DNA of 40,158 nt, taken from the NCBI GenBank assembly GCA_030628225.1, contig DAOVRJ010000001.1, positions 1-40,158 of the forward strand, written 5' to 3'. Under the pieces are notes generated by a model. The model saw only the letters and a list, made by a program, of their open reading frames with translations. It was not told the origin of the DNA and did not search any database. Both the position numbers and the translations under genes were made by a program. This document shows, piece by piece, positions 1-22,642 of this stretch. The stretch is from Candidatus Zixiibacteriota bacterium (GTDB lineage: Bacteria > SM23-81). How positions within the stretch are numbered: the stretch's first letter is position 1; each line of letters opens with the position of its first letter.

Positions 1-3
1 CTC

Positions 4-600: not shown

Positions 601-1046
601 CGTTCCCTCTCCGATTCAAGGATCAGAGTTACCGGGCCATCGTTGTGGATATTCACGGACATGCGGGCTCCGAAACGACCCGTCTCCACCCTCAGTCCGC
701 TTTGCCGCAGAATGGCCACGAAATGCTCATACAGGGGCTCGGCCTTATCGGGTGGCGCCGCTTCAGTAAAGCTGGGCCGGCGTCCCTTGCGGCAATCCCC
801 GTAAAGGGTAAACTGGGAGATGGCCAGGATCTCCCCACCCACCTCCAGGACGGAGCGGTTCATCTTGCCCTGCTCATCCTCGAAGATGCGCAGGTGGAGA
901 CATTTTTCGGCCAGATAGCGGGCCTGGGACTCTGTATCATCGTGTCCGATGCCCACTAAGAGTACCAATCCCAGGCCGATCCGGCCGATGGATTGACCAT
1001 CAACTGTGACCTCTGCTTCGCTGACCCGTTGTAGGACGATTTTCAT
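597..1046 (-). CDS. dtd: D-aminoacyl-tRNA deacylase
   Basis: 149-aa ORF starting MKIVLQRV. The SQFTLYGD and NDGPVT motifs and the ~150-aa size are diagnostic of Dtd. Confidence 0.92.
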
Positions 1047-7453: not shown

Positions 7454-7498
7454 GCCCCCCCCAGCCTCTGAAGGTTCTTCCTCCCATCCCCTCAGCCC

Positions 7499-8515: not shown

Positions 8516-8648
8516 GGCCTTTGCTCTCCGGAGAAATGTGTGGAGACAGCCAGCACGTCCAAGAGGTATTTGGGACCAGGAAAGGAGGGAACTTGGATGG
8601 CAGGAAAACGGCACAAGGCTAATGGGGGGTGCAAATCTACCGCTCGGC

Positions 8649-9422
8649 CTAAAAGCTCCTCTTCAGACCGATGACCACCATCGAGGAGCCGGGTGCCGGT
8701 CGCACACAGAGGGAGAGCTGGACCGGTGAGGGCCGGGAGGCGTGCTCTTTGTTGTATGCCCTGGCTGTCCTGGCGGCGTCCACGGCGCTCACCAGATGGT
8801 TGAGCAGAATGACCCCGGTCACGATGATCGCGTTGTGTTCCGCGTTGATGCTGGTCCGATAGATGGAGTCAAATTCCCTTTGCGAGCTGTCGCTGTCCCA
8901 CTCCCAGAAATCGCTCCCCGAATAGAGCTGGGCCTCCTCCCGGTAATTTATGAGCTGTCGGCTGTTATACTCCTCCATGCTGGTAAAGATACTCACGTCC
9001 TCAAAGTACTCCTTGGATTTGCCCCGGATATCGACGCCGGCGTGCGTCGCCGCATAGAGCTGGTAGTCTTCCTCTTTCCAATCGCTATAGAGGTGCAATC
9101 CCAGAAATCCAGCTAAAATAGCCAGCTCCGTTCCTAAAAAGATCCGTCCGCGACCCGGTGCCTTGGTGTAAAACTGCCCGGTGCCGGGTATCAGAAGAGA
9201 GAGAATAAAGGCTTTCGGCGCCGATCTGGACTCTGCAGATGTCAGGATAATTTCCCCGGTTTTCGCGGCCACGGGGCCCATTGCCCGGTCACTCCCCTGA
9301 GCTACCATGGATAGATCCATGAGCGTCACGATGGAGTGACTCCTGGCTTGAATGGGCAAGAATGTGATCAGCAAGCTGGCTGCCAACCCGGCGACCCACA
9401 AAAGGCCTGTATGCGCCTTCAT
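8649..9422 (-). CDS. Small membrane protein, DUF5683-like (paralog of 12495..13418)
   Basis: Start chosen at MKAHTGLLWVAGLAASLLITFLPIQA (ATG 9422), preceded by GGGGGAGGG. The maximal ORF to 9530 would overlap the upstream gene. The protein shares LSLLIPGTGQFY (hydrophobic hairpin), a Trp/Tyr/Asp/Glu-rich middle, NHLVSAVDAARTARAYN and a C-terminal ...GLKRSF with its paralog. Confidence 0.6.
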   Translation of the reverse strand: MKAHTGLLWVAGLAASLLITFLPIQARSHSIVTLMDLSMVAQGSDRAMGPVAAKTGEIILTSAESRSAPKAFILSLLIPGTGQFYTKAPGRGRIFLGTELAILAGFLGLHLYSDWKEEDYQLYAATHAGVDIRGKSKEYFEDVSIFTSMEEYNSRQLINYREEAQLYSGSDFWEWDSDSSQREFDSIYRTSINAEHNAIIVTGVILLNHLVSAVDAARTARAYNKEHASRPSPVQLSLCVRPAPGSSMVVIGLKRSF

Positions 9423-9435
9423 CTGGCCCTCCCCC

Positions 9436-12400
9436 TTATCCGTCCGAGCTAATAAAGGTAAACAAGAGATTGAAATAGACCCGCCACCCCCCCTTCTCTG
9501 CCGGGCGGTTTTCGATGGCCGGAATATCATCTAACCCATAGGCGGCTGCAAGGCTGAGCTTTGTAGGAAAGGCGTAGAAGGAAAAACAATCCAATCTGAA
9601 CTCTGCCCCAACATTTTTCTTGATATCGTCGAAGTTGACACCATCGTCATTCCAGGCCTTGCCGGCGCCGTAGAAGATGGACCCGCACAGCTTGTCAAAA
9701 TAGACCTGGAAAAACTGCTTGCTGATGTCCATCCAGATGGGAAAGCGATAAGTCACATTCCCCAAAGCTATCCGCCGGCCCTCGATGCTATAGAAGGAGT
9801 AACCCCTGAGACCCTCCTGACTGCCCAGTTGAAAGTAAAAGAAGTCGTCCACGGCCTCGTCGATCACCCCACCCTTGAGGTGCAGGATCAGAGAATGCCG
9901 TCCCCAGGGAAGAGCCCGGTATTCTTTCCAGTCCAGCCGAAACTGGTCGTAGTAGTTCTTGTAGTAAGCGGTGACGTAACCGTATTCCGTTAACTTCCCC
10001 TCGTTTGGATTGATCAGTTTGTTGAACATGCGATCGTAGCGAAGATGTATCTCCCGCCCACCCCGGGGGTTGATCTCGGCATCCCGGGCCCGGGAGATGG
10101 ATTTATAGTCCCAGCGCAGGGATATATCGTGGCCGCGAAAGTAGGTCCAGCTATCTTTGCCCAAAAGCCATCCTTCCGGATAGTGTCCTGGTACCGGCTC
10201 CCGGGTCCAGGCCTCCAGATAGACATCGTACTTACTGAAGATGTAAGCCAGGGTAAGCTCTTTCTGGTAGGTGATGGACATGGGGTCACTCCAAGCATAC
10301 CGGATCCCCAGGTCAAATTCCGTCAGATCATACCGCGTTTCCAAACCAACCAGGGTTTTATGGCCATCGATCCGGTCATATACCTGATCATCGACATGTT
10401 TGCGCAGCCGAAAGGCCTCGAAGAACAGAGTGGGGGCGAACATCCGGTTCTCGTACTGGGCATAGAAATCGAAGTCCCCATCTTTGGCCACCACGGCCGT
10501 GGCGAAAGCAGACTGCTTGCTCAATAGCTCCTGTGAAGCTAAATATAAGCCCCCCTTGAATTTGTTGTCGTCAATAACGAAACGGGGCAGGAAAAAGGTC
10601 TTGTTGAAAATGGACTTGTAGGGCCGGGACTCAAAATGGGGCGCAGCCTCCCGGTGACCTGGATTATCGCCCAGGCCGGCAATGGACGGAATATCCGCAG
10701 GCTTCCCCAGGGTCTCATCCATAGGCAACAGGAAGATCTGGTACCCATCCGAGGTGTATCCGGAATAGACCACCGTCTTCCCGTCCGGGGAAAGGGAGGG
10801 GTTGAAGGCCCCACCCACCACATTAGTCACCTGGGTCAGGCTTCCCTCGTCCAGCCTGTATACATAAAGATTGAATATTCCTCCCCGGTCCGAGGAAAAA
10901 CAAACGGTCCGACCGTCGGGGGACCAACAGGGATCGCGATCATCCTCCAGTCCCCGGATCAAGGAACAACCGCCCGTGCCATCGGTGTTGACCAGGGTCA
11001 CGTCCCGGGTCCGCTCGCGAAACGTGCTCACCAGGATCTTATCACCGCCCGATGACCAGCGGGGGCCATAATACTGGGTGCCATCCTGGTTATCCGTCAG
11101 AGTTCGAACCAGCTTCCCATCGGGATCCAGCAGGGCCAGATTGCGGGTACCGTCGCCATTGAGGACCACCAGTATAGACTGGCCATCAGGAGACCAGCGA
11201 GGATCAGTGGCCCGCAGTTCATGGGTCAGCCGCTTCTCTTTTTCGGTCTTCAGATCGTAGAGATAGATATCGTTCACATGAGAGCCGTATTTGTTAGGCT
11301 TCACCCTCTTGGCATAGACCAGCTTTTCCCCGTCCGGAGACCAGGATGCCGCCGAGCGGAGCCCTCCGGCCACCTGTTCTGCCTCCTGGGTCTCCATGTC
11401 CATCACGTAGAGGCTCATGATCTGGTAATCGCTGCCCTTGTTGGACAGATAGGCCAGCTTTGTCCCATCCGGCGACCAGGCGGGATGGATGTTCATCCAG
11501 CCCTCCTGGATTATCTTCCTGCCTTCCACCAGGTCTTTCTCCACCATCCTCTGCTGGTCCTGATACTCGTCCAGCATGTGTTCATGCCATTCGCGGTAAA
11601 GCTGTTTTTCCGATCTTCCAGTGACCTTCTTTATGGCCGAACCGAAGTTATACCGCCATGGGCTCCTCATAGCCCGACACAGGTCTTTCAGGCTCTTGGG
11701 CCCATATTTCTCGGCGATGTACCGGGTCAGGGAAAATCCCTGGTTGTAAACCATCTCGTTGCCCAGCCCGATCTTTCCAAATCCGCCCATCTCGTCGCAA
11801 CTTAGCAGCTTGTCGCCCAGGACACCCATGCGCAGCAGCATGTCCCGGTGGGTGTCCCAGGACTCATGATCGAGGGAAGGGGCCTGGTACTGGGCCAGCC
11901 CTTCGGCAAACCACAGGGGAACCACCGTCCCGGGCAGGGGATAAGATATGATCACGTTGGGGTACCCGCTGATTACATCGGGCCTCTTCTCCTTCTCATA
12001 GCCGATGTACTGCAGGTAGAAGGATGGCAGCCACTGGGGAAACTTGCGGGCCAGCTGCAGGGAGACCATGTGAGTGAACTCGTGGGTGATGACGTTGCGC
12101 AGCCAGTGGTGCATGCCCCGCAGCTCCCAGTCCATCTGGGTGGCCCAGATGGCGATCTTGTTCTCATAGTAGTAGGCCATTCCATTGGCATAGTCGTCGG
12201 TATCGTAGATGATCAGGTCCACCACCTGGGGTAGCGGATAGTCATAGAGAGAGGTGATCGGATCATATATCTCCTCGGCGATCTGTGCCGCCAACTGGGC
12301 GGTACGCTCGGCACCCTGGTGGTAGTGAATCCGGAAGTGCTCCCTCTCAATGGTGCGCCATTCCAGCTCCGGATGGTTATAGGCCCAAGCTTGGCCCACC

Positions 12401-12453
12401 GCGATCAAGAGGATGGCCAGACAGATCATGATATGTGAGATCCGAACGTGCAT
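9436..12453 (-). CDS. Fusion protein: HExxH (Peptidase_MA-like) domain + six PD40/TolB-type propeller repeats + C-terminal Omp85-type beta-barrel
   Basis: Signal peptide MHVRISHIMICLAILLIAVGQAWA (ATG 12453; the maximal ORF starts at TTG 12498). VITHEFTHMV lies at nt 12070-12084, with WFAEGLAQY about 55 aa later (gluzincin-like). PD40 repeats: WSPDGTKLAY, WSPDGEKLVY, WSPDGQSILV, WSSGGDKILV, WSPDGRTVCFSSDRGG, LSPDGKTVVYSG. The aromatic-rich C-terminal ~390 aa contain QLGSQEGLRGY...NVTYRF (LRGY at nt 9799-9810). This aligns with the KLGGARTLRGY...NLEYRF motif of the Omp85 protein at 2200..3984. Confidence 0.7.
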   Translation of the reverse strand: MHVRISHIMICLAILLIAVGQAWAYNHPELEWRTIEREHFRIHYHQGAERTAQLAAQIAEEIYDPITSLYDYPLPQVVDLIIYDTDDYANGMAYYYENKIAIWATQMDWELRGMHHWLRNVITHEFTHMVSLQLARKFPQWLPSFYLQYIGYEKEKRPDVISGYPNVIISYPLPGTVVPLWFAEGLAQYQAPSLDHESWDTHRDMLLRMGVLGDKLLSCDEMGGFGKIGLGNEMVYNQGFSLTRYIAEKYGPKSLKDLCRAMRSPWRYNFGSAIKKVTGRSEKQLYREWHEHMLDEYQDQQRMVEKDLVEGRKIIQEGWMNIHPAWSPDGTKLAYLSNKGSDYQIMSLYVMDMETQEAEQVAGGLRSAASWSPDGEKLVYAKRVKPNKYGSHVNDIYLYDLKTEKEKRLTHELRATDPRWSPDGQSILVVLNGDGTRNLALLDPDGKLVRTLTDNQDGTQYYGPRWSSGGDKILVSTFRERTRDVTLVNTDGTGGCSLIRGLEDDRDPCWSPDGRTVCFSSDRGGIFNLYVYRLDEGSLTQVTNVVGGAFNPSLSPDGKTVVYSGYTSDGYQIFLLPMDETLGKPADIPSIAGLGDNPGHREAAPHFESRPYKSIFNKTFFLPRFVIDDNKFKGGLYLASQELLSKQSAFATAVVAKDGDFDFYAQYENRMFAPTLFFEAFRLRKHVDDQVYDRIDGHKTLVGLETRYDLTEFDLGIRYAWSDPMSITYQKELTLAYIFSKYDVYLEAWTREPVPGHYPEGWLLGKDSWTYFRGHDISLRWDYKSISRARDAEINPRGGREIHLRYDRMFNKLINPNEGKLTEYGYVTAYYKNYYDQFRLDWKEYRALPWGRHSLILHLKGGVIDEAVDDFFYFQLGSQEGLRGYSFYSIEGRRIALGNVTYRFPIWMDISKQFFQVYFDKLCGSIFYGAGKAWNDDGVNFDDIKKNVGAEFRLDCFSFYAFPTKLSLAAAYGLDDIPAIENRPAEKGGWRVYFNLLFTFISSDG

Positions 12454-12494
12454 ATTGGTCCCCGTAGCCACTAAGGCAGCCAAAAAGCGAATGT

Positions 12495-13418
12495 TCAAAA
12501 TCTCTTGGTTAAGGTGATCTTGGGGATAGCCTTTCCGGCGTAGATATCCATCCCCATGCGCAGCTCAGGATAACCGGCTTCCTCCAGGGATCGCCGGTTA
12601 AAGGCCTTGGCGGCTAAAGCGGCATCCAGGGCGCTGATCACGTGGTTGAACAGGCTGGCGCTGATCCCCCAGGTGGCTCGCTTGAGCAGGTCGTTGGCGT
12701 CGCCGCGCAGGTTAGCATATCTGTCTCGATTCACAGTGGCCGTGGCGTCGCCCCCGCGGCAGATGTCCCGAGTGGTCTGATCGAATGTATAGCCCAAAAG
12801 GGAATCATTGGGGGCGAAATCGCCGGGAAGGTAATCCTGCGGGTTGCCGACCCAACCAAAGGAGAACTGGTCGTATTTGCCGATCATCTCGTAGTAATCG
12901 CCGTCCTTCTGAGCAGGCAGGTGGTGGGTGAACATCTTATCGAAATCGGGATCGTTGTCCCCCTTACGGGCGTCGTACCAGTCCTCCCAGTCGCGATACC
13001 AATCAAGATAAGCATCTTCGGACCACTCGACGTCGGCGAAATCCATGTACTCGTCCTCCTTGTCCTTGCCGGAGCTGTGCTGGGTAAAATACCATGCCCA
13101 GGAAGCCGTCTCTACAGCCAAGAAACCTATGGCCCTCTTCTCAGCCCCAACGTAGAGCTCTCCCATACCGGGAATGATCGCCGAAAACAGCAGGGCCTTG
13201 CCCGGGGACTTCAATCCCGGCGTGCCGGCGGGAATTCCCTCCACGAAAACCGGCTGCTGACCAACTTTCTGGGCCACCTCCCCCACCGACGGCTGTGCTC
13301 TTAGAAAATGCTCGCCGATCACACCAACCCCAGGACCGACGTCGGCCAGCGCTGTGCTGCCCAAGGCCAGCATCGTGCAGACAAGAACCAGAGACCGGAA
13401 AACGGACGTGCCTTTCAT
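12495..13418 (-). CDS. Small membrane protein, DUF5683-like (paralog of 8649..9422)
   Basis: Start chosen at MKGTSVFRSLVLVCTMLALGSTALA (ATG 13418), preceded by AAGGAGGGGG. The maximal ORF to 13622 overlaps the upstream gene. Motifs: FSAIIPGMGELY, an acidic/aromatic middle (DWYRDWEDWYD), NHVISALDAALAAKAFN and a C-terminal ...TLTKRF. Confidence 0.6.
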   Translation of the reverse strand: MKGTSVFRSLVLVCTMLALGSTALADVGPGVGVIGEHFLRAQPSVGEVAQKVGQQPVFVEGIPAGTPGLKSPGKALLFSAIIPGMGELYVGAEKRAIGFLAVETASWAWYFTQHSSGKDKEDEYMDFADVEWSEDAYLDWYRDWEDWYDARKGDNDPDFDKMFTHHLPAQKDGDYYEMIGKYDQFSFGWVGNPQDYLPGDFAPNDSLLGYTFDQTTRDICRGGDATATVNRDRYANLRGDANDLLKRATWGISASLFNHVISALDAALAAKAFNRRSLEEAGYPELRMGMDIYAGKAIPKITLTKRF

Positions 13419-13446
13419 CGCCCCCTCCTTTGAGAGATGTGCCTGG

Positions 13447-16400
13447 TTATTTGACCACCGCAATTTTGCAAAAAACCGTTTCTTGATACCCTCCTCCCCG
13501 AGCCTCCACCCGGCATAGGTAAACCCCGCTAACCACATCGGACAGATCCCAGACCACCTCGTTCTCCGTGTGGGCGAACCCTGTGCCGGGCAGATCGGCC
13601 ACCAGATCGCCGGACAGATCATAGATGCGAATGTCGACCTCGGCCTCCTGACCGAGCCGATACCGTATCGTGGTGCTCTGTCCTTCAGTGGGATTGGGAT
13701 AGTTGTACACCGAGGCCGCGGGCATCAGCTCCCCGGCCTGGGGAGGCGAGGGAAGTTCGCAGATGGGGAAACCCCCCGTGTGTCTGAAATCGTGCCCCCA
13801 GGTGGGCCAGGGGAGCTGAGCAGAGTCGGGCTCTGCCGCCAGGTCCCACACATACATCCACCCGGCCTCATCTCCGGCCAGGATCTCGATGTCCCCATCG
13901 CCGTCGATGTCGGCCAGGGTCGGCGAGGAGTTGACCGCCCCGGCACAGGCCAGGGGCCAGCCCTGCAGTGGATCCCCGAATCTGTCGTGGGCCACCAAAA
14001 GGCCCGCAGGAGTGCCCACCACGATGTCCACCTGCCCATCCCCATCCACATCACCCAGGATGGGCGAGGATTTCATGGTACCAGTATCCTTCAAAGGAAT
14101 GGGAAAGTTCGACACCGGCGAGACGTTGTAGTTCCAGGCCCAGATCTCATCGGTTCCGACAACCACTACCTCCAGATAGCCATCGCCGTCGATGTCTCCC
14201 AGGACTGGCGAACTACTCAAGGGACCTTCTATCTGCACTGGCCAACCGGTGGTCAGATGTCTATACAAATCCCAGACATAAATCTGCCCCCCGGCACAAG
14301 TGGCAATAATCTCCACAATTTGATCATCCCGATCTAAGTCTCCCCAAACCAATCCCATAATCTCTGCTGGAGTTTGAATAACACGAGGTTCTATAGAACC
14401 TTCCCCCAAGGGACAGAACGTAAACACTTGACCGTTAGCCGTTCCGGCGATTACTCTATAAACGAAAGGCCATGAAGCACCGTCGGCAACAGTCAGTGCC
14501 GTAATAGTACTTTCTCCCAGGTTAACCCGCCAGGTGATTTTATCCTCCTCGCCGGGAGCCAATTCGTATACCCAGCCGTTGGCAGTCCCCACCACAATCC
14601 TCGTCCCGCAAAAAACGCCGGGTACTCTAATCAACAAAGCGGCACTAGAAATAGGACTCTCCACGTTAAAAGGAAACCCATCAAGCTCTTCTCCGTCGTG
14701 ATTCCAGCAGTGGACATCTCCGCTCACGGCGCCCAGAACGATTTCCTGATCACCATCCTCATCCAGGTCGCCCAGGGCAGCAGAACCCGCGATGGAATCC
14801 GCCAACTGGACGAACAGAGCCGAGCTGTCCGCTCCGGGCAGAAACGGCGTTCCGTCATGATTCCACACAAAGACCCGGCCATCAGGAGTATTCATCACGA
14901 TCTCCATGTCCCCATCGCCATCCAGATCACCCACCAGGGGCGGATTTTCGGCCAGGGAAACCGCCATCGAATCGGGCCAGCCGGGCTGGTACGTGTCGAT
15001 GGACACGTCGCAGGTCATGGTCGCCCCCGAGGGGCCTATCCCAGTCACGAAAATGTGGCTGTCGGCCCCGCTGTAGCTGTTGGAGTTTGGGTTCGAGGTA
15101 GGCGTGAAGGCCGTGTTGTTGCCCTGGTAGAAGGCATCCTCGGGCATGCCATAGGTGACATAGCCCCCGTAGAGGATGTGGCCGATGTCCTGAAAACCGT
15201 CGGCCTCCTCCAGATCCACCCCCCGGTGGTAGGGGTCGGCGTTGACGGTATTGCTCTCGTAGTTCTCCCGGATGACCTTCTCGTCCACGTGCCAGATGAG
15301 CAGACCCGATCCGGGGATGCCCCAGTCGTACTCGTCCACCTCCAACAGGACCCCACCCTCGATCTGGGCCACGATGCTGTCCCCCCAGGCGTCTCGCTGA
15401 CGGTTCTCGATCAGGAAATACTCGTCGGCATTGATGGGCACTTTCAGCACGGTGGTGTTGGAGCCCCTCACCACCAGGGCATCAATGGCCACCTCCAGGC
15501 TGTCCCGCACCAACACGGGCCTCTCCCAGCCTAAAAAGATCCGCGACCAGGCGCAGGGCACCGCGGGGATCAGGCCCAGCTCGTTGCCGGAGCCCTGGTC
15601 CATCAGGCCCCAGGACCCGATGCCCGAGGAGCCATCCGCGCTGTTGTACAGATTGGGCAGCCCCAACCGATGTCCGAACAGCAGGGCCATCAACCCGGTG
15701 AGGCCGAACTCGACATCCCGCTGGTTGAGGGTCTCCGGCATCCACAGGCCCTCCTGGACAAGATAGGTTCCTCCGTTCACCGGCACTCCCTGAGCATACT
15801 GGGAGCCCAGGGACTGGCTCAGCCATTCCAGGTCCATGTAGGCCGAGGGAATATCGTTTGGCGTCTCGTCGTAAGAGAAAGCGATGTCCGCCCCCACTCC
15901 GGCGTGAAAGATGACCAGGGCATCGAACTGAGAGAAATCGATGGTGCCGGCGGCATCCGCCGTCTCCAAAGCATCCCGGAAGAACTCCGCCAGCCGCCGG
16001 TCGTTCTCCGACTCGGTGAGATTGGGGCTGTAGTAGGCCATCTCGTTGGGCAGAGTGTAGGCCGCATCATTCTCCTGCGGATAGACCTCGCAGGAGAAAT
16101 CCAACAACCCCCGGGAGACGTTCAGATAGTATCTGTGCAGGGCCTCCATCTGTCGTTGAAAATATATCCTGTCATGAGGCGGCGGGTTTATGACCTCGTC
16201 GGAGCTGGCGGAAAGGTCAAACTTGCCCGTGCCGGTTGTGGTGGAGGTGGTATCTGGGAGAAAGTCAACCCGGATGGCCAGAACGGCCTGGGGAAACTCC
16301 TCCGCAGAAACGGTCAGCCCGGCGGCCGGATCGCCCTGCACCAGATCGGCCCGATGGAAACCTTCTCTGCCGCAACGAAGAACCATACCGACATGATCGC

Positions 16401-16518
16401 TCTCGGCCCCCGCCGGGAGAGCGATAAAACAGAGGGCCGAAACTGTGGCCAGACCGGCAATAGAAACGGCAATTCTTCTGATCTTCATCGACTGCTCTCG
16501 CCTCCGCTTATGGATCAT
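13447..16518 (-). CDS. Exported M6 (immune-inhibitor-A)-like pseudo-metalloprotease domain + ~8 FG-GAP/VCBS propeller repeats + T9SS-type C-terminal sorting domain
   Basis: Signal peptide MKIRRIAVSIAGLATVSALCFIALPAGA (alternative ATG at 16488). M6-like blocks are present: VIFHAGVGAD, ALLFGHRLGLPNLYN (in place of AHEFGHxLGLPDLYD), GIGSWGLMDQGSG, LLIWHVDE and LEEADGFQD. FG-GAP-type repeats: GDLDGDGDMEIV, GDLDEDGDQEIV, GDLDRDDQIVEII, GDIDGDGYLEVVV, GDVDGDGQVDIVV, ADIDGDGDIEILA, plus two degenerate blades. The C-terminal 89 aa (nt 13450-13716) read NYPNP..TTIRYRL..VDIRIYDLSGDLV..GVYLCRVEA..KIAVVK, which fits a T9SS type-A CTD / FlgD-Ig-like pattern. Confidence 0.7.
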   Translation of the reverse strand: MIHKRRREQSMKIRRIAVSIAGLATVSALCFIALPAGAESDHVGMVLRCGREGFHRADLVQGDPAAGLTVSAEEFPQAVLAIRVDFLPDTTSTTTGTGKFDLSASSDEVINPPPHDRIYFQRQMEALHRYYLNVSRGLLDFSCEVYPQENDAAYTLPNEMAYYSPNLTESENDRRLAEFFRDALETADAAGTIDFSQFDALVIFHAGVGADIAFSYDETPNDIPSAYMDLEWLSQSLGSQYAQGVPVNGGTYLVQEGLWMPETLNQRDVEFGLTGLMALLFGHRLGLPNLYNSADGSSGIGSWGLMDQGSGNELGLIPAVPCAWSRIFLGWERPVLVRDSLEVAIDALVVRGSNTTVLKVPINADEYFLIENRQRDAWGDSIVAQIEGGVLLEVDEYDWGIPGSGLLIWHVDEKVIRENYESNTVNADPYHRGVDLEEADGFQDIGHILYGGYVTYGMPEDAFYQGNNTAFTPTSNPNSNSYSGADSHIFVTGIGPSGATMTCDVSIDTYQPGWPDSMAVSLAENPPLVGDLDGDGDMEIVMNTPDGRVFVWNHDGTPFLPGADSSALFVQLADSIAGSAALGDLDEDGDQEIVLGAVSGDVHCWNHDGEELDGFPFNVESPISSAALLIRVPGVFCGTRIVVGTANGWVYELAPGEEDKITWRVNLGESTITALTVADGASWPFVYRVIAGTANGQVFTFCPLGEGSIEPRVIQTPAEIMGLVWGDLDRDDQIVEIIATCAGGQIYVWDLYRHLTTGWPVQIEGPLSSSPVLGDIDGDGYLEVVVVGTDEIWAWNYNVSPVSNFPIPLKDTGTMKSSPILGDVDGDGQVDIVVGTPAGLLVAHDRFGDPLQGWPLACAGAVNSSPTLADIDGDGDIEILAGDEAGWMYVWDLAAEPDSAQLPWPTWGHDFRHTGGFPICELPSPPQAGELMPAASVYNYPNPTEGQSTTIRYRLGQEAEVDIRIYDLSGDLVADLPGTGFAHTENEVVWDLSDVVSGVYLCRVEARGGGYQETVFCKIAVVK

Positions 16519-16524
16519 GAACCG

Positions 16525-17490
16525 TTAAAATCTGGCCGTCAGGGAAAAACGCATGGTATCGGCCAGCGGGTGCCCTTCCTGTGCCGTGATGTATCCGAAA
16601 TCGAAGCGAAAAAAATCGTACTGCAGACCAGCACCGAAGGTGGCCGTCTTCACCTGCCCATATTTGTCATAGATGTAACCGGCTCTCAGGGCCAGTAACT
16701 GGGCATACCAATACTCGGATCCGAAATTCGCCCACCATTCTCCTCCCACCAGTCCGATATTCAGCTCGCCACTCAGCAGAAAATCGTTGTACTGAGTGTC
16801 AAAAAGCTGATAGGCGGTCCCTATCTTCAAGTTCCGTGGTAAGGAGCTGGATTGGTTGGCATCTACGTACATGATGTCCGGCCCGATGTTCTGTAACAAT
16901 GCACCGGCACTCAGTCGGGGAATCAAGTCCCGGGAGAGGATTCCCACATCGGCGGCGTAGCTCATGGCCCGGCCATCTCCCTTCTCCACATTCTGGCCCG
17001 GGCCCAGATCGCTGTAAATGACCTTCAGGTTTACCCCCGCGGCGACACTTTCGGACAGCAGCGCCCCCAGAGAACCGCAGATGGCCAGCTCGTAGCTATG
17101 GTGCCAGCCCAGGATTTCCGGGCCATATTCTGAAGTGTAGGGCATATTTCCGTAGGAGAAGTAGATGATATGTCCCCCAAAAGTTCCCACTCCCTTCCAG
17201 GCAGCTGACCAGCAGACGAAATTATAGTACATGTCGGAGGTGAATTCTGGAAACCATTTAGTGTGCATGAAGGTTACTTCAGTGCCTCGTTGAAAGCCCA
17301 GGCCGGCGGGGTTCCAATAGGAGGCGGTGGCATCGTCGGCCACGGCCACAAAAGACTCCCCCATTCCACTGGCTCTGGCCCCGGGCGCGATCATCAGAAA
17401 CAGCACCCCGGACTGGCTAACGGCGAAACATGTGGCAGCGGGCAGGATGCTCACCAAAATGATGCCGCCGAGCAACAGGCTCCTTTTCAT
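16525..17490 (-). CDS. PorV/PorQ-family outer-membrane beta-barrel protein (copy B)
   Basis: 321 aa with a signal peptide ending CFA. The N-terminal motif APGARASGMGESFVAVADDATASYWNPAGLGF is typical of the PorV/PorQ (UPF0164-like) family. It ends in ...MRFSLTARF. It is the same length as the upstream paralog and about 60% identical by eye. Confidence 0.65.
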   Translation of the reverse strand: MKRSLLLGGIILVSILPAATCFAVSQSGVLFLMIAPGARASGMGESFVAVADDATASYWNPAGLGFQRGTEVTFMHTKWFPEFTSDMYYNFVCWSAAWKGVGTFGGHIIYFSYGNMPYTSEYGPEILGWHHSYELAICGSLGALLSESVAAGVNLKVIYSDLGPGQNVEKGDGRAMSYAADVGILSRDLIPRLSAGALLQNIGPDIMYVDANQSSSLPRNLKIGTAYQLFDTQYNDFLLSGELNIGLVGGEWWANFGSEYWYAQLLALRAGYIYDKYGQVKTATFGAGLQYDFFRFDFGYITAQEGHPLADTMRFSLTARF

Positions 17491-17522
17491 CCTTCACCCT
17501 TCCGCTGTGTGAGTCTTTCCTT

Positions 17523-18488
17523 TTAGAACTTCACCGACAGAGAGAAACGCATGGTGTCGGCCAGAGGATGTCCTTCCTTCTCCGGGATGTACCCGAAATC
17601 AAAACGGTATCGATTGTACTGCAGACCCGCCCCGAAAGTGGGCGTTTTGATCTCCCCGTAATCGTCGTAGATGTACCCTGCTCTCAGAGCCAGAATCGTC
17701 GAGTACCAGTACTCGATGCCAGCATTGCCGCGAAACTCCTCCTCCACCAAACTGCTGTTCAACTCGACGGTGGCAAGCAGGTTGTTGTACTCAGATTCTA
17801 TGATCTTATAGGAGACACCCAGTTTCAGGTTTCTGGGCAGTGGACTGGATTGCTCGGCGTCGATGTACATAATGCTCGGCCCCAGGTTCTGTACCATGCC
17901 TCCAATTTTCAATTTGGGCCAGGGACCCTTGTACAGGACACCTACATCCACGGCGTAGCTCATGGCTTTGCCATCGCCCTTTTCCACATTTTGGCCTGGA
18001 CCCAGGTTGCTGTAAATGCCCTTCATGTTCACTCCCACGCAGAGCTCCTCGGACACATTGGTTCCATAGGAAAGACAGCCGGCGATCTCGTAGCTCTCGA
18101 AGAGGTATTGCACCTCCGGGCCGAACTCAGTTGTATAGGGGATCTTGCCGTAGGTCAGGTAAAGGATGTGTCCTCCAATACCTCCCCAACCATCAACATA
18201 ATGGGTGTAGCTCAAGAAATCATAGTACATGTCATCGGCGAATTGTGGAAACCACTTGCTATGCATAAAAGCCAGCTCTTTTCCCCTCATAAAACCGAGG
18301 CCGGCTGGATTCCAATAGGAGGCGGTAGCATCGTCGGCAACGGCCACAAAGGCTTCTCCCATTCCGCTGGCTCTAGCCCCTGGCGCGATCATCAGAAAAA
18401 GCACTCCCGCCCGGCTCACAGCAAAGCTGGAGGAGGCGGTCACCAGTACCATAAGAAGAGTGATGCCCAGAAGCAGAAATTTCCTCAT
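17523..18488 (-). CDS. PorV/PorQ-family outer-membrane beta-barrel protein (copy A)
   Basis: 321 aa. Signal peptide MRKFLLLGITLLMVLVTASSSFA with a GGAGGA SD. Motif APGARASGMGEAFVAVADDATASYWNPAGLGF. It ends in ...MRFSLSVKF. It lies directly downstream of the C25/PorU-like gene, matching the known porU-porV adjacency in Bacteroidota. Confidence 0.65.
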   Translation of the reverse strand: MRKFLLLGITLLMVLVTASSSFAVSRAGVLFLMIAPGARASGMGEAFVAVADDATASYWNPAGLGFMRGKELAFMHSKWFPQFADDMYYDFLSYTHYVDGWGGIGGHILYLTYGKIPYTTEFGPEVQYLFESYEIAGCLSYGTNVSEELCVGVNMKGIYSNLGPGQNVEKGDGKAMSYAVDVGVLYKGPWPKLKIGGMVQNLGPSIMYIDAEQSSPLPRNLKLGVSYKIIESEYNNLLATVELNSSLVEEEFRGNAGIEYWYSTILALRAGYIYDDYGEIKTPTFGAGLQYNRYRFDFGYIPEKEGHPLADTMRFSLSVKF

Positions 18489-18589: not shown

Positions 18590-21500
18590 TCAGCGCATAA
18601 CCACCACCTTTCCGTAAGCTTCGGTTCGCTTTCCTTCAACGCGAGCAATGATCTTATATAGATAGACACCGTTGGCCACGCGATCCCCATCCTGGTCCTC
18701 TCCTTCCCAGGGTTGGCTCTCGTTGTAGCCAGGAGCTATTTCCCCCTGTTCCAAAGTACGGATGAGCCTGCCGGCCACGGTGTAGATCCTGATGGTCACT
18801 CTGGCCGGACAGCTGAGCTGGTAAGTGAACCGGGTGTTCTCCGACTGAGGGTTGAAGGGATTTGGACAGTTCAGCACATTGCGCAGGAACAGCTCTCCCT
18901 CTTCCATAACCTCAAAATCCAGGGTGACCGTAGAGAAGTTGTTGAAGTTGTCCCACGCCTTCATGGTCAATGTATGCAATCCAACGCTTAACCCCTCCAG
19001 GGTATAGTTCAGCATACCCCGCTGGTAACTTCCCAGGTCGTAGTTAAACCTGTCGGTCACGTTGACACGCTGGGCATCCTCATCGACAGTCAGAACGATC
19101 CAGTGTCCCACCTCTCCGGTGATGTTGATGCCGTTCTCATCCTCCAGGTAAGCGACGATTGTAGAATTGGACGGCACAAAATCTCCGGGGGCGAACTGTT
19201 GACCGGCGATGCTCAGTTCTATTGCCGGGCCGATAGTATCTACCACCGCCGAGGCAGTGCCTTGAACCGGCAACGAATCCAGATAGGCCAAACCATCTCT
19301 GCTCTGGTCGTTGAGGTACGCGCTAATCCGGGCCATGCGCCCCCCGTAGCTGATGTCCTTGGGCACCACGAAGGTGGCCTCAAAATTGCCCTCCTCCACC
19401 AGGCAGGATCCTCGAAAAAGGGTGGCGCCGGGCAAAAGATAGTATATCTTGGACCCAACCTTGGTTGTGTACGTGGTGGCCCGGGCGGAATCAAAAACCC
19501 GCAAAGAGACGCTCCCCTGAAAAGTTGTATCCGGAACGCCCCGAGAAAAAACCTGCCCCTGAACAGTAACCCGATCCAGGGCCTTCAGAGTATCCCGGGA
19601 CATGCTGGTGATGTGGCTCTCCAGCTCCGGGCTTCCCAGCCTCATGCACGGGTCGCCAAAAAGAGCGTACTTCTGGTCGTTGCTGTACGAATTGGGTCGG
19701 CTGAGCTTGGCCCCGAACAGTCCCTCCCCCAGGGTGAGATCTTCGTTGCCTAAGACCAAGCGCAGAAACTCCTTATTCAGCTCGGCATTGGGGGTGGCAT
19801 AACAATACCTGGTGGCCCCTATGGTGGCCACGGCACCACTGTCCTTGACCCTGAGCAGCTCCTCAGACATGGATTCGTTGAGCGTGTGGTCGAACCTGCC
19901 CACATCGCAGGAGGCGGAGTAGACCAGGGGCAGACTCTGCCCATTGGTCAGCCTGGGGATATCATTGGAGCCTCGAAAAGCATCCTCATGAGCCCAGACG
20001 TCGAAGTTCCCATGTCCAATCCAATTGACCACCAGCATCCCCTCGTTGAATCCATCGATGACCGCCTGCTGTGCCTCCGGCTTCTTGTTGGACCAGTCCA
20101 TGGGGTATTCCGTCAGGTAGACCTTATGCTGGTCATAGGAGGGGGAAATGAAATTCCGGGCCAGGTCTTCGCTATCCCGGGTGTGAAAGAGCTCGTTGCC
20201 CTCGCCGTTAGCGGCAGTCTCGTCATCGGAGACGATCATCACCCGGCTGCGCCAGGGTCCGAAGAAGGGATCTAACACATAATCGGTTATTTTACCCACC
20301 ACCACACCGGCCTCCTCCTCGGAGCGCACCGGCAGACGCCCGATCATCATATCTGCCAGATAATCTCCGTCCAGGCGTACAAACCAGTCATCGGTGCACA
20401 AATCTCCCATCTCATAGGGAGGAATTAAGTTAGACCCTCCGGCACCGGAGTTATTCTTGTAATCGAAGTTTCCATCTCCAAAGAGCAAAATGTATGCCGG
20501 GGGAACCACTTGCCTCTGATTATAGGCAAACCACAGATAATCCCGTATGGCCGTGGGATCAACCAGCCCCCAGGCGAACCGGTCGTACACATCCTCGATG
20601 GTGGCCACCACAACGCGCATTCCCTCCTGGCGGTGCAAATTCACCAGAGGCTCCAAGCTTTCCTGAAACGCACGGGGTGTTACCACGATCAGATCGGCAC
20701 TCACCTCCCGCAGATTCGCCGGGATTCGCCTTTCCACGGAAAGGGGGGACACATATGCCTGCGGCGTGGCCGCATAATAGCGCCTCGGCTCCGCAACGGA
20801 CAGGTTTTCCTGAAAACGGAGAGTGTAGTGATCCTCCTGGAAGAACACCGAACCATCGGTGATCCGCACGGGCATATACGGATCGCTTACATCGAGCAAG
20901 AGAATCTGGGCCTCGGAGAAACCCGCCAGATCGTACTGTATGGTCCCCGAGGTGTCCGGGCTGGAGAAGTACAGCTGGTCCTCCACAACCTGATATCCCC
21001 GCCAGTACTCGATCTCGAACCAGTCGAACAAAATATGATCCCACTCGGACTCGACCCGGGGAAGCACGATTGTAAGGGTGTTCTCCCCCTCCCGCAATCC
21101 CTCGGTCTCTCCGTCGGCGACGATTGCCACGGCACCATACCAGAGTCGCTCGATGGTCGGATAAGGGCTGCCGTTCAGATAAAAATAGACATGATGGGGT
21201 ATGGATGAAGGTATCGATCCGGAGGACTTGTAGTAGATGCCCTTGACCCGCACCTTGAGCTGGCAGGATTCGTCTGCTACCCCCTCCAGGGTCACGCGGT
21301 GCTCCTCGGTCTCAGCCCCATGCCCCGTCATGCTGTCCCAGTACCAGGTGAGTCCTGAATAGCTCGGGTTCAGGTAATCGCGCTCCTGATGCGCAGTGGT
21401 CCTGAACCGCTCTGCCTGAATGTATGTGGTCGACTGCGCAGCTCCCGGTCGGATTTCCATCCTCCTGCCCGGCTCCCCCCCATAAGTCAGCCAGTAAACA

Positions 21501-22642
21501 TTGAGGTCCGTATAGGGGTTGGCATATTCGCTGTACCCCCCTTCAGACATCTCCTCCCATCCGGAGAGATCGGTGGCGTAGAAAAGAATCTCGTCCTCCG
21601 GGTCCAGACGACCGTCATCCTGACCGGAGATGGAGATGGGGATCTCCACCATGGTTGGCGGATTCCCCACCTGACGGGGCAGAATTTTGCATCCTATATT
21701 GTAGATTTTGATAGTCGCGGGATCCACCATCGCCAGGTCTAATCCGGCCTGGTTTAGTTCAGTGGATGTCAGCCGACAGATCCCCTCCAGCCGCAGGGAG
21801 ATCTTGAACCAGTCGTCCGATGAGGAAAAGGGGTCATCGCCCCGGATGATTCCTCTGGCAGAGGATCGGGGGCGCGTGCGCCAATTTCGGGCCTGTTCAT
21901 AGTTCAACAGGCTGAACCGGTAAACTCTCTCAAACAGATCTTCGCCGCTTTCATCTTCAACTTCCGGCAATGATGGGCTGAATTGTACCTGAACGACGAT
22001 GCGGCGGTGAATCCGGACCGTCCTGGTCACGGGATTAAACTGCACCGGATAAAGAACCAGCGGAATGACCCGTTGATGTCTCAAAAAGGCCGCCTGCTGG
22101 GCAACACAAATCTCTGCCGGGAAAAAGGCGTCTGCTTGGTACACCTTCCCGTCAGGCTGATAGACGGTCTCGTAAAATGAAGCATCCTCGCCCTTTCCGC
22201 GGAAGGCTCGAGGGCCCGGAGCCAGGAAAACGTCCTGCCGCTCTTCGAACTCATCCTCCAGAATGGAGAAGGACACCACTGCCTGGGGTGGAAACCCGAT
22301 GTTCACGGCCTGCATAGGCAGCATGGGAATACCTTCCCGGACGGCCATGTCGCAGCCCGGCAGGCTAAGTAGCTGAAAAATATCCTCTCCGCCCTCTCCG
22401 GGCAGATTCACCACCGAGGCCTCTGCGGCCAGGAACTCTAAAACCAGGCCATCTCGGCCTGAACTCATCAGGCGAACCGAGCTCAGCTCCTCGCCACTGA
22501 GAGGCATCGCTGCCAGCAAAACCACAACGGTCGCTAAAAACGCCAGATCCCTCAAATTCTCAGCCTTCGCTTTCACAATAAAAAAACCGAGCGACAGGGA
22601 CACCCACACCCCCTTTGTCAACCCGGCACGTTGATCGATCAA
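18590..22642 (-). CDS. Peptidase C25 (gingipain)-family protein with T9SS-type C-terminal domain; PorU-like candidate T9SS sortase/CTD peptidase
   Basis: 1350-aa maximal ORF. C25-type blocks: LIVVTPRAFQESLEPLVNLHRQEGMRV, PAYILLFGDGNFDYKN, catalytic-His context VNWIGHGN (CAT at 20012-20014) and catalytic-Cys context VYSASCDVGRFD (TGC at 19907-19909, 35 residues later). The C-terminal 99 aa (nt 18593-18889) read NCPNPFNP..TRFTYQL..VTIRIYTVAGRLI..GVYLYKIIA..GKVVVMR, a T9SS CTD pattern. The start is uncertain: TTG at 22642; GTG at 22576 gives (M)KAKAENLRDLAFLATVVVLLAAMPLSG, which looks like a signal peptide. Confidence 0.7.
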   Translation of the reverse strand: MIDQRAGLTKGVWVSLSLGFFIVKAKAENLRDLAFLATVVVLLAAMPLSGEELSSVRLMSSGRDGLVLEFLAAEASVVNLPGEGGEDIFQLLSLPGCDMAVREGIPMLPMQAVNIGFPPQAVVSFSILEDEFEERQDVFLAPGPRAFRGKGEDASFYETVYQPDGKVYQADAFFPAEICVAQQAAFLRHQRVIPLVLYPVQFNPVTRTVRIHRRIVVQVQFSPSLPEVEDESGEDLFERVYRFSLLNYEQARNWRTRPRSSARGIIRGDDPFSSSDDWFKISLRLEGICRLTSTELNQAGLDLAMVDPATIKIYNIGCKILPRQVGNPPTMVEIPISISGQDDGRLDPEDEILFYATDLSGWEEMSEGGYSEYANPYTDLNVYWLTYGGEPGRRMEIRPGAAQSTTYIQAERFRTTAHQERDYLNPSYSGLTWYWDSMTGHGAETEEHRVTLEGVADESCQLKVRVKGIYYKSSGSIPSSIPHHVYFYLNGSPYPTIERLWYGAVAIVADGETEGLREGENTLTIVLPRVESEWDHILFDWFEIEYWRGYQVVEDQLYFSSPDTSGTIQYDLAGFSEAQILLLDVSDPYMPVRITDGSVFFQEDHYTLRFQENLSVAEPRRYYAATPQAYVSPLSVERRIPANLREVSADLIVVTPRAFQESLEPLVNLHRQEGMRVVVATIEDVYDRFAWGLVDPTAIRDYLWFAYNQRQVVPPAYILLFGDGNFDYKNNSGAGGSNLIPPYEMGDLCTDDWFVRLDGDYLADMMIGRLPVRSEEEAGVVVGKITDYVLDPFFGPWRSRVMIVSDDETAANGEGNELFHTRDSEDLARNFISPSYDQHKVYLTEYPMDWSNKKPEAQQAVIDGFNEGMLVVNWIGHGNFDVWAHEDAFRGSNDIPRLTNGQSLPLVYSASCDVGRFDHTLNESMSEELLRVKDSGAVATIGATRYCYATPNAELNKEFLRLVLGNEDLTLGEGLFGAKLSRPNSYSNDQKYALFGDPCMRLGSPELESHITSMSRDTLKALDRVTVQGQVFSRGVPDTTFQGSVSLRVFDSARATTYTTKVGSKIYYLLPGATLFRGSCLVEEGNFEATFVVPKDISYGGRMARISAYLNDQSRDGLAYLDSLPVQGTASAVVDTIGPAIELSIAGQQFAPGDFVPSNSTIVAYLEDENGINITGEVGHWIVLTVDEDAQRVNVTDRFNYDLGSYQRGMLNYTLEGLSVGLHTLTMKAWDNFNNFSTVTLDFEVMEEGELFLRNVLNCPNPFNPQSENTRFTYQLSCPARVTIRIYTVAGRLIRTLEQGEIAPGYNESQPWEGEDQDGDRVANGVYLYKIIARVEGKRTEAYGKVVVMR

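Follow-up and report, generated by a model that had tools for sequence, protein, structure and literature searches.

Gene Content of the Locus

The window analysed here is the whole stretch of 40,158 nucleotides of contig DAOVRJ010000001.1 (assembly GCA_030628225.1) from a Candidatus Zixiibacteriota bacterium. It harbours a minus-strand gene string (Table 1) in which a porU gene, two porV-family genes and a gene for an M6-like protein, the subject of this study, are consecutive and on the same strand, as described in the initial annotation. The mechanically called ORF of the latter (13447-16518, 1023 aa) is real, and a start at Met11 is given by both the public gene calls and an identical database protein (P0001), each of 1013 aa.

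Table 1. Genes of the conserved string and domains of the M6-like protein, with their positions in the window.
Feature	Position	Strand	Details
M6-like inactivated metalloprotease with FG-GAP propeller and type A CTD	13447..16488	-	1013 aa from Met11
Predicted Sec signal peptide	16405..16488	-	MKIRRIAVSIAGLATVSALCFIALPAGA followed by ES; read by eye; N-terminal helix at 5-36 in the model
M6/InhA-like pseudoprotease domain and following beta domain	14989..16287	-	residues 78-510
Degenerate zinc site	15652..15684	-	residues 279-289; LLFGHRLGLPN in place of HExxHxxGxxD
Eight-bladed FG-GAP/VCBS beta-propeller	13804..14976	-	residues 515-905; FG-GAP_3 73.7 and FG-GAP 57.4 bits (Pfam)
Type A T9SS CTD	13450..13716	-	residues 935-1023; seven-strand beta-sandwich in the AlphaFold2 model
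PorU sortase (C25 peptidase and CTD)	18590..22603 (ORF to 22642)	-	1337 aa (public gene call)
PorV-family barrel, copy A	17523..18488	-	321 aa; NF033709 260 bits (cutoff 90)
PorV-family barrel, copy B, directly upstream of the M6-like gene	16525..17490	-	321 aa; NF033709 237 bits (cutoff 90)
Conserved membrane protein, weakly DUF5683-like	12495..13418	-	307 aa; downstream of the M6 gene in 40/52 loci
MA_PD40: HEFTH MA-clan peptidase, PD40/Tricorn-like propeller and C-terminal Omp85-like barrel	9436..12498	-	
DUF5683-like protein	8649..9422	-	257 aa (public gene call); kept downstream in 27/48 loci
Giant outer-membrane barrel, SprA/Sov relative	3995..7453	-	1152 aa; same gene string

The neighbour previously read as a C25/CTD protein is indeed the PorU sortase, since it matches the T9SS_sortase profile (NF033707) with 742 bits against a cutoff of 420 and Peptidase_C25 with 300 bits, and carries a C-terminal domain. 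The two barrels had been described as PorV/PorQ-like; their membership of the PorV family stands, but not the likeness to PorQ, as copies A and B score 192 and 183 bits with PorV, and 88 and 73 bits with PorQ, respectively. They share 62% identity and, judging from their sequences, are recent duplicates of the PorV type. The second copy is missing from the closest relative (L083), and porV copy number differs among close relatives. In two further loci (L009 and L045), what appeared to be two porV genes proved in each case to code for one long PorV that carries a large insertion.

Downstream of the M6-like gene, a 375-aa ORF overlapping its 3' end is an artefact of ORF calling, the actual gene coding for the 307-aa membrane protein. 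The next gene product, MA_PD40, retains an intact site (HEFTH), and its Omp85 match reaches 24.1 bits. An Omp85/POTRA protein is also encoded in the gene string. The 1152-aa barrel is distantly related to the T9SS translocon SprA/Sov and has half its length: its best four Foldseek matches are all SprA, and 24 of 40 members of its family match TIGR04189. The presence of this SprA-like barrel indicates that the operon is T9SS-related.

Domain Organisation of the M6-like Protein

The protein comprises four parts, namely, a predicted signal peptide, a zinc-less M6/InhA-like domain, an eight-bladed FG-GAP propeller and a type A T9SS CTD, and an AlphaFold2 model was obtained with a pLDDT of 92.8 and a pTM of 0.89. 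The M6-like domain matches Pfam Peptidase_M6 (PF05547) with 28.9 bits (cutoff 22, no single stretch exceeding it) and TIGR03296 with 92.3 bits, under the cutoff of 110.8, and a profile search of the PDB matched InhA (4yu5) at the degenerate motif. With M6/InhA proteases (PDB 4YU5, PF05547, TIGR03296) it appears to share the scaffold of the catalytic domain, but substitutions have removed the catalytic Glu, the first His of the zinc site and the Asp that serves as third ligand, and the propeller and the T9SS CTD are additions. The earlier description of a dead protease domain is thus borne out by the loss of the HExxHxxGxxD zinc/catalytic motif.

The propeller had been estimated at about eight blades, in agreement with the model, in which residues 528 to 892 form eight blades of four strands each. 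DxDxDG calcium-type loops are found in blades 1, 2, 5, 6, 7 and 8, and the lectins PLL, PHL and PVL were matched in a PDB profile search. The CTD was correctly located by the initial annotation, residues 940-1010 matching both Por_Secre_tail (PF18962; 32.2 bits, cutoff 27) and TIGR04183 (31.8 bits, cutoff 23). The features that define a T9SS type A cargo are therefore present, that is, the CTD and a signal peptide read by eye, with porU, porV and a SprA-like barrel in the gene string. With regard to column conservation, the CTD (0.68) and the M6-like domain (0.65-0.67) exceed the propeller, which has the lowest value (0.43). The PorU orthologues of the same loci follow the same pattern (0.57 versus 0.53), in a comparison that covers the M6-like family and PorU.

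Family Membership and Conserved Neighbourhood

The protein matches NF052323, "T9SS-dependent M6-like inactivated metalloprotease" (T9SSA_dep_M6i), with 534.4 bits (E 5.8e-160, in 4 stretches), below the naming threshold set by the curated equivalog cutoff of 600 bits. We class it as a sub-threshold member of this family, to which its homology is clear. It shares with NF052323 the three-part architecture over the full length, the loss of the HExxH site, the type A CTD and the place after porV; it differs in its score and in its dead site, which reads LL..H..N instead of AT..S..D in Ignavibacterium. NF052323 is a named family on which our search of the literature returned no paper, and on M6-like proteins, PorU2, PorV2 or T9SS in these phyla it returned nothing relevant.

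The homologues number more than 1513, with a length of 990-1090 aa and the same architecture in nearly all, and at least 584 matching stretches are present in species-representative genomes. The relatives belong to KSB1, Calditrichota, Ignavibacteria, Zixibacteria, Latescibacterota, Eisenbacteria and other phyla. We examined 80 genome loci, each from a different assembly, and observed one architecture throughout. A porV-family gene lies directly upstream in 49 of 52 loci with a dead site, and porU is upstream in 27 of 45. The member from Ignavibacterium album (L055; 1133 bits on NF052323) adjoins an equivalog-level PorV and, located after porU-porV and before MA_PD40, has the same position as the protein studied here. 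The earlier view of a non-catalytic T9SS-CTD protein tied to porU/porV is upheld by this adjacency, the conservation of which across many phyla argues that the protein is more than an arbitrary cargo adhesin.

Loss of the Zinc Site and the MA_PD40 Neighbour

Among 114 family members, none has Glu at position 280 or Asp at position 289, while His is present at position 279 in 12 and at position 283 in 69. In about a quarter of the loci (19 of 79), a homologue with an intact HExxH...D was found, and those that occupy the same operon slot have retained HExxHxxGxxD. For these intact-site homologues, porV is directly upstream in 8 of the 15 with enough upstream sequence and porU is upstream in 4 of 11, whereas five of 15 have no porV nearby.

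The state of the site is closely associated with that of the neighbourhood: MA_PD40 is downstream in 45 of 49 dead-site loci versus 0 of 15 intact-site loci (Fisher p 2.4e-11, in a test that ignores phylogeny). The MA_PD40 orthologues keep HExxH in 48 of 51 cases, and four dead-site loci lack MA_PD40 nearby. The occurrence of this peptidase beside dead sites points to a transfer of catalysis to the neighbour. If other Omp85 proteins are a guide, the peptidase domain of MA_PD40 would be turned towards the periplasm, whereas T9SS cargo faces outward, which makes a simple hand-over topologically awkward. The site may have been lost once or repeatedly: in a neighbour-joining tree, the deep nodes of which are unresolved, the split between intact and dead sites appears in 2 of 100 bootstraps.

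The CTD and the Comparison with PorZ

The CTD had been aligned by the initial annotation with that of PorU, and the two are 35% identical in a stretch of 105 residues (pairwise E 2e-12). The alignment covers YPNP/CPNP, V-x-IRIY, GVYL and K-[IV]-x-V-x-[KR], but the register of T-x-R-[FY] is only approximate, and the shared motifs are generic type A CTD motifs. On a profile of the M6-family CTDs, the PorU CTDs have a median of 42 bits (n=22), only slightly above the 32 bits of unrelated neighbouring cargo CTDs (13 tails, including two M6/PorU fragments). Because these control scores overlap, the resemblance to the PorU CTD was dropped as a sign of a shared partner. The "retained-type" label of the CTD was also abandoned. 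No sequence rule tells cleaved and retained CTDs apart, and the one structural difference that has been published, an extra hairpin common to PorU and PorZ CTDs in P. gingivalis, is functionally irrelevant according to its authors (PMC11285876). In the AlphaFold2 model, the CTD of the M6-like protein is a plain seven-strand domain devoid of this hairpin.

The protein had further been proposed as an analogue of PorZ. It resembles PorZ of Porphyromonas gingivalis (PDB 5M11; NF052228; PF21544) in being a non-catalytic, putatively T9SS-secreted protein in which propeller(s) precede the CTD, and in being encoded with or near attachment-complex genes. In PorZ, however, there are two propellers of the sensor type, each seven-bladed, and a protease-like domain is lacking (PMC5121618), as opposed to one eight-bladed FG-GAP propeller and an M6-like domain, and the two candidate barrel partners are here of the PorV type, not the PorQ type. 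On the NCBIfam PorZ model (NF052228), the protein reaches 20.8 bits (cutoff 260) through an alignment limited to CTD residues 935-1023, while the true PorZ proteins of relatives score 262-392 bits. The PDB profile search detected only generic propeller and CTD similarity, and in the Foldseek comparison, 5m11 ranked 19th (TM 0.18/0.23, rmsd 24 Å), behind generic propellers.

A canonical PorZ, when looked for in relatives, was found beside the same family in three of them, in two cases within the same cluster. In a KSB1 locus (L008), a 741-aa PorZ (277.5 bits, cutoff 260) is encoded upstream of porU-porV-M6i, an arrangement that recurs in L028, and chromosome CP070762.1 carries a PorZ (P0260, 261.7 bits) together with a porV-M6i cluster. 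Ignavibacteriales MAGs also carry PorZ (P0277, 389 bits). Since relatives hold a true PorZ too, the M6-like protein is most probably not a PorZ stand-in. Of the "PorZ-like non-catalytic role" first suggested for it, the non-catalytic part is retained and the likeness to PorZ is not; nor is a complete attachment-complex operon supported, as neither barrel is PorQ-like and canonical PorZ is a separate protein in relatives.

Proposed Role and Alternative Explanations

We propose that the M6-like protein is most likely a PorV-docked, non-catalytic T9SS surface protein, an explanation that, taken as a whole, we hold with a probability of about one half. The protein would be exported by Sec via its predicted signal peptide, and its CTD would then be passed to the T9SS, as suggested by the family match. 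On the cell surface, it would be functionally coupled to the PorV barrel encoded by the neighbouring gene, most likely with its CTD kept docked in PorV as that of PorU is, a form of coupling to which gene adjacency and CTD conservation point. There, it might act through its M6-like domain and propeller as a binding or scaffold partner instead of an enzyme. The same explanation supposes that the family works alongside PorZ, not in its place, and that it may descend from an active M6 protease of the same operon slot, whose catalysis could later have been delegated to MA_PD40. The gene for a CTD protein likewise adjoins that of its holding barrel in the case of PorU-PorV and of type B CTD/PorP-like anchors (PMC12365241, PMC9143113), and in its conservation the CTD equals that of PorU. 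In contrast to these systems, surface location, CTD retention and binding to PorV are here what we infer, and the CTD is of type A, without the P. gingivalis PorU/PorZ hairpin.

Several points speak against this explanation: the score on NF052323 stays below the curated cutoff, the CTD has the usual seven strands of type A and passes the generic cargo model, and "T9SS-dependent" in the NCBI name means cargo. The protein could thus be a surface adhesin or lectin-like cargo, the CTD of which is cut by PorU and the gene of which lies near porU/porV as that of an abundant or ancestral client, a possibility that we consider real, if rather less probable. The resemblance of FG-GAP propellers to lectins and integrins, with the matches to PLL, PHL and PVL, fits such a role, as do the intact-site homologues, which resemble normal secreted proteases and in some cases lack a nearby porV; moreover, with PorZ separately present, no slot in the machinery is vacant. 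Nevertheless, adjacency to porV over so many phyla would be unexpected for arbitrary cargo, the architecture is the same in all loci, and it is the CTD and the dead domain that are most conserved, whereas the propeller, the presumed adhesive part, is least conserved.

Two other explanations appear improbable. The tight link between dead sites and MA_PD40, which keeps its HExxH motif and bears an Omp85-type barrel, together with the Omp85/POTRA protein of the same string, would suit a regulatory or inhibitory pseudoprotease paired with MA_PD40 in outer-membrane protein quality control instead of T9SS attachment. The topologies expected of a surface cargo and of periplasm-facing Omp85-type domains differ, though, adjacency to porV is tighter than that to MA_PD40, and some dead-site loci have no MA_PD40 nearby. 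Still less probable is a PorZ analogue, a subunit of the attachment complex without catalytic activity that a PorQ-like barrel would hold and that would hand the anchor glycolipid to PorU. The propeller-plus-CTD layout, the place directly after porU and porV, the lack of catalysis and the PorU-like conservation of the CTD would be in line with it, and the intact-site relatives L063 and L072 are followed by a PorV-family barrel scoring higher with PorQ than with PorV. Set against this are the missing homology outside the CTD, the lack of a specific fold match, the different propellers, the coexistence with canonical PorZ, the PorV type, recent duplication and variable copy number of the neighbouring barrels, and the same-slot homologues that are apparently active proteases.

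Significance for T9SS Biology

Knowledge of the T9SS comes almost wholly from Porphyromonas and Flavobacterium, and the literature that we consulted restricts the system to Bacteroidota or, at the widest, to the FCB superphylum, without treating the phyla considered here. As the present locus shows, a gene string with porU and porV is conserved in many other FCB-group phyla and includes three further genes without a studied counterpart, coding for a dead M6 protease, an MA-peptidase/Omp85 fusion and a half-length SprA-like barrel. A speculative and rather unlikely extension would be that, in FCB-group phyla outside the class Bacteroidia, the T9SS outer-membrane module includes an additional, previously undescribed subunit pair, composed of a PorV-docked M6 (pseudo)protease and an Omp85-anchored MA peptidase that took over catalysis upon loss of the M6 site, both encoded with PorU, PorV and a half-size SprA-like translocon. 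Should the M6-like protein be only cargo, the analysis would still do away with an assignment to PorZ that is attractive but wrong. If PorV has a fixed partner in the dead protease, attachment uses additional parts in most lineages carrying the system, and the state of the site together with the neighbouring peptidase would offer a clean natural case of catalysis being passed from an enzyme to its neighbour.

Domain Composition and Family Membership

Profile searches with the target protein revealed FG-GAP repeats, a weak match to M6 peptidases and a type A CTD. The zinc site is dead, the M6 motif HExxHxxGxxD being replaced by LLFGHRLGLPN. In the AlphaFold2 model, obtained with 114 homologues as input (pLDDT 92.8, pTM 0.89), an alpha/beta domain occupies the N-terminal part, residues 528-892 form eight blades of four strands each, and a sandwich of seven strands lies at the C-terminal end. 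Profiles, motif and model thus confirm the propeller of about eight FG-GAP blades, the dead protease domain and the CTD described in the initial annotation, which was also right in suspecting a T9SS link, as indicated by the type A CTD and the adjacent porU and porV genes.

By far the best match of the target is NCBIfam NF052323, named 'T9SS-dependent M6-like inactivated metalloprotease' (E 5.8e-160), where its 534 bits fall just below the 600-bit cutoff. Clear sequence homology places the target in this family, hereafter M6i, as a new, sub-threshold member of a group already named by NCBI curators, on which our literature search found no paper. A protein search with the target returned more than 1513 relatives, with generic source names only; nearly all are 990-1090 aa long and share 36-72% identity across 92% or more of the length. 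When a single genome per species was scanned, at least 584 stretches matched. The family is carried by KSB1, Calditrichota, Ignavibacteria (including Ignavibacterium and Melioribacter MAGs), Zixibacteria, Latescibacterota, Eisenbacteria, Gemmatimonadota, WOR-3, Marinimicrobia and others. The Ignavibacterium album orthologue reaches 1133 bits on NF052323, and the gene adjoining it passes the PorV equivalog model. Within M6i, the mean column identity is 0.68 for the CTD, 0.65 for the M6-like domain and 0.43 for the propeller, the least conserved part; PorU orthologues from the same loci, the one other family compared for this CTD pattern, give 0.57 for the CTD and 0.53 for the catalytic domain.

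Organisation of the Locus

All genes of the window lie on the minus strand (Table). From porU through the porV copies and the target to the following genes, neighbouring genes either overlap or are separated by no more than about 100 nt, and a site scan of the region found no terminator-like site between them. The top promoter-like site is found ahead of porU; site counts in this region do not exceed those of shuffled sequence. The order ftsZ, rSAM, porU recurs in another genome (L030). A 375-aa ORF overlapping the 3' end of the target was rejected as an ORF-calling artefact; the true gene inside it starts at Met69 and encodes a 307-aa protein with a signal peptide, weakly related to DUF5683.

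Table. Features of the window, in transcription order, and of homologous loci (L-numbers) from other genomes
Locus	Feature	Coordinates	Strand	Remarks
Window	dcw cell-division cluster, murF to ftsZ		minus	First in transcription order
Window	B12-binding radical-SAM (B12-rSAM) gene	26849-28504	minus	TIGR03960 family, below cutoff; between ftsZ and recG
Window	recG, then two small genes (DUF366, DUF1844)		minus	After B12-rSAM, ahead of porU
Window	Top promoter-like site	22901-22873		Upstream of porU
Window	porU		minus	Followed by the porV-family genes
Window	Two porV-family genes	16525-18488	minus	Between porU and target
Window	Target ORF	13447-16518	minus	Public gene calls and identical database protein begin at Met11 (start 16488; 1013 aa)
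Window	Rejected 375-aa ORF	12495-13622	minus	Overlaps target 3' end
Window	307-aa DUF5683-like protein	Start 13418	minus	Directly after target
Window	MA_PD40, 1020-aa peptidase	9436-12498	minus	After 307-aa DUF5683-like gene
Window	Second DUF5683-like protein, then NHL-repeat protein		minus	After MA_PD40
Window	big1152, 1152 aa	3995-7453	minus	After NHL-repeat gene; without Pfam match
Window	Omp85/POTRA protein, prenyltransferase, maf		minus	End of transcription order, after big1152
L008	PorZ, 741 aa	1172-3394		Upstream of porU
L028	PorZ	3-818		Upstream of porU
L063	PorV-family barrel	8933-9937		After intact-site homologue
L072	PorV-family barrel	13104-14108		After intact-site homologue
L009	PorV with insertion	7387-9699		Intact-site M6 locus
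L045	PorV with insertion	7144-9786		Intact-site M6 locus
L086	BrnT/CopG toxin-antitoxin pair and split MA_PD40	13787-17465		CP070762.1

The initial annotation accurately placed a PorU and two PorV/PorQ-family barrels beside the target, the former reaching 742 bits on the NCBI sortase model (cutoff 420) and both 321-aa barrels passing the PorV/PorQ family model. The complete PorU/PorV/PorQ/PorZ-type set that it had tentatively read into these genes is not supported: each barrel does better on the PorV model than on the PorQ one. The two share 62% identity and do not make up a PorV/PorQ pair. A single porV copy is present in L083, the nearest relative of the target (72% identity), and the tandem pair recurs in the more distant L084 (67% identity), so that the second copy was gained or lost within the lineage.

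Conserved Adjacency to porV

The proteins of the window were compared by tblastn with 80 genome loci. Where the site of the M6i homologue is dead, the gene immediately upstream belongs to the PorV family in 49 of 52 loci, a PorV-family gene is nearby in two more, and PorU is found upstream in 27 of 45. Genera with MAGs that carry the cluster include Ignavibacterium, Melioribacter and Caldithrix. Downstream, M6i is usually followed by MA_PD40 and the DUF5683-like proteins, then in some lineages by the NHL protein, big1152 and the Omp85 gene. The persistence of the porV adjacency over phylum-level distances is the main argument for a functional tie between M6i and PorV.

Some arrangements differ. 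At L063 and L072, from MAGs of Gemmatimonadales and Eisenbacteria, a PorV-family barrel comes after, not before, an intact-site M6/propeller/CTD homologue, and PorQ is its better-scoring model (119 and 107 bits, against 61 and 75 bits for PorV). At two other intact-site loci (L009 and L045), PorV is encoded by one long ORF (770-880 aa), with about 450-560 residues inserted after approximately residue 66.

Active and Dead Forms, and the Neighbouring Peptidase

When the 80 homologues from these loci were aligned with the family profile, the intact HExxH…D site was seen in 19 of them, the rest being dead. The intact forms come from Zixibacteria, WOR-3, Eisenbacteria, Stahlbacteria, Gemmatimonadales, Glassbacteria and two Ignavibacteria MAGs, and the dead ones display several substitution patterns (LM..H..N, HQ..H..S, A[SN]..S..D, LL..S..S and RF..S..G). 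In a neighbour-joining tree with unresolved deep nodes, the dead forms do not make up one group: a split between intact and dead forms appears in 2 of 100 bootstraps, and the dead group of Latescibacterota is placed among intact forms.

Like the dead forms, 8 of the 15 intact ones with enough upstream sequence have porV immediately upstream, and porU lies upstream in 4 of 11. MA_PD40 is present within 2 kb downstream at 45 of 49 loci with a dead site and at none of the 15 with an intact one (Fisher p 2.4e-11, uncorrected for phylogeny). This protein combines Peptidase_MA_2, with an intact HEFTH, PD40/Tricorn-like propellers and a C-terminal region reaching the Omp85 Pfam threshold; HExxH is retained in 48 of 51 orthologues. 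In L086, a BrnT/CopG toxin-antitoxin pair lies between the M6i gene and MA_PD40, itself split between two genes, one for the peptidase and propeller (564 aa) and one for the Omp85 barrel (440 aa).

A Putative SprA-like Barrel in the Gene String

With regard to big1152, it belongs to a family of over 900 proteins, every one annotated as 'hypothetical' and lacking a Pfam domain. The model (pLDDT 82.7) consists almost entirely of long beta-strands, roughly 40, and predicts a giant barrel; the protein ends in …AEMRAFF. The top four Foldseek matches are the T9SS translocon SprA (E 2.9e-12 to 2.6e-09, the next being about 1e-7), with low TM scores, and the SprA model TIGR04189 is matched weakly by 24 of 40 members of the family (best E 1e-13). 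These data are suggestive of a remote relative of SprA, half its length, within the porU/porV gene string, and of an operon that is T9SS-related beyond porU and porV. Weak matches to TIGR02217 (phage distal tail protein, Rcc01695 family) also occur in 18 of the 40 members (alignment A4, best E 3.7e-06) and may stem from small N-terminal beta domains; one member is labelled DUF2460-containing in its NCBI record.

Comparison with PorZ

PorZ possesses two seven-bladed sensor-type propellers (PMC5121618), whereas the target combines a single FG-GAP propeller of eight blades with a protease-like domain. On the PorZ model, the CTD of the target alone aligns (20.8 bits, cutoff 260), and in a Foldseek search with the target model, PorZ (5m11) came at rank 19 (TM 0.18/0.23), below BBSome and WD40 propellers. 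The CTD does align with that of PorU, as first noted (35% identity over 105 residues, E 2e-12). However, the family-CTD profile gives overlapping ranges for PorU CTDs (median 42 bits) and unrelated neighbouring cargo CTDs (median 32 bits for 13 tails, including two M6/PorU fragments), so this likeness is mostly generic. In P. gingivalis, the uncleaved PorU and PorZ CTDs share an extra hairpin, found functionally irrelevant by the authors (PMC11285876); it is absent from the modelled target CTD, which leaves the 'retained-type' label of the initial annotation without support.

No PorZ is encoded within the 40-kb window, but PorZ coexists with M6i in relatives. In a KSB1 single-cell genome (L008), a protein passing the PorZ equivalog model (277.5 bits, cutoff 260) precedes porU by a few kb, in the order PorZ … PorU, PorV, dead M6, MA_PD40, and the complete chromosome of an unclassified bacterium (L028) is arranged likewise. 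PorZ, PorU, PorV and M6i can therefore share one cluster outside class Bacteroidia. On chromosome CP070762.1, PorZ (P0260, 261.7 bits) maps to 2.84 Mb and the string porV-M6i-MA_PD40 to 3.46 Mb, and Ignavibacteriales MAGs also encode PorZ-level proteins (P0277, 389 bits). A canonical PorZ elsewhere had been listed by the initial annotation as an observation against its own reading, and relatives supply it.

Proposed Role

We propose, with a probability of about 0.5, that the target is a PorV-coupled, non-catalytic T9SS surface protein. It would be exported by Sec, transit the T9SS via its CTD and reside on the cell surface, where the CTD would remain docked in PorV; the M6-like domain and propeller may have a binding or scaffolding role, with catalysis possibly delegated to MA_PD40. 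The soluble domains of MA_PD40 should face the periplasm, like those of other Omp85 proteins, whereas T9SS cargo faces outward, a conflict that this proposal leaves unexplained.

That the target is ordinary T9SS cargo seems rather unlikely, although it is the alternative to be taken most seriously: the type A CTD suits it, and the conserved neighbourhood with porV speaks for the coupling to PorV. A role as pseudoenzyme partner of MA_PD40, with no part in attachment, would fit the association of this peptidase with dead forms; we regard this reading as improbable. Least credible, and not supported, is the PorZ analogue put forward in the initial annotation, given homology confined to the CTD, the lack of a specific fold match and the true PorZ of relatives.

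What is new here is the cross-phylum linkage of M6i to porV and a series from active to dead forms tied to a neighbouring peptidase, together with the coexistence of M6i and PorZ and the presence of a putative SprA-like barrel in the gene string.
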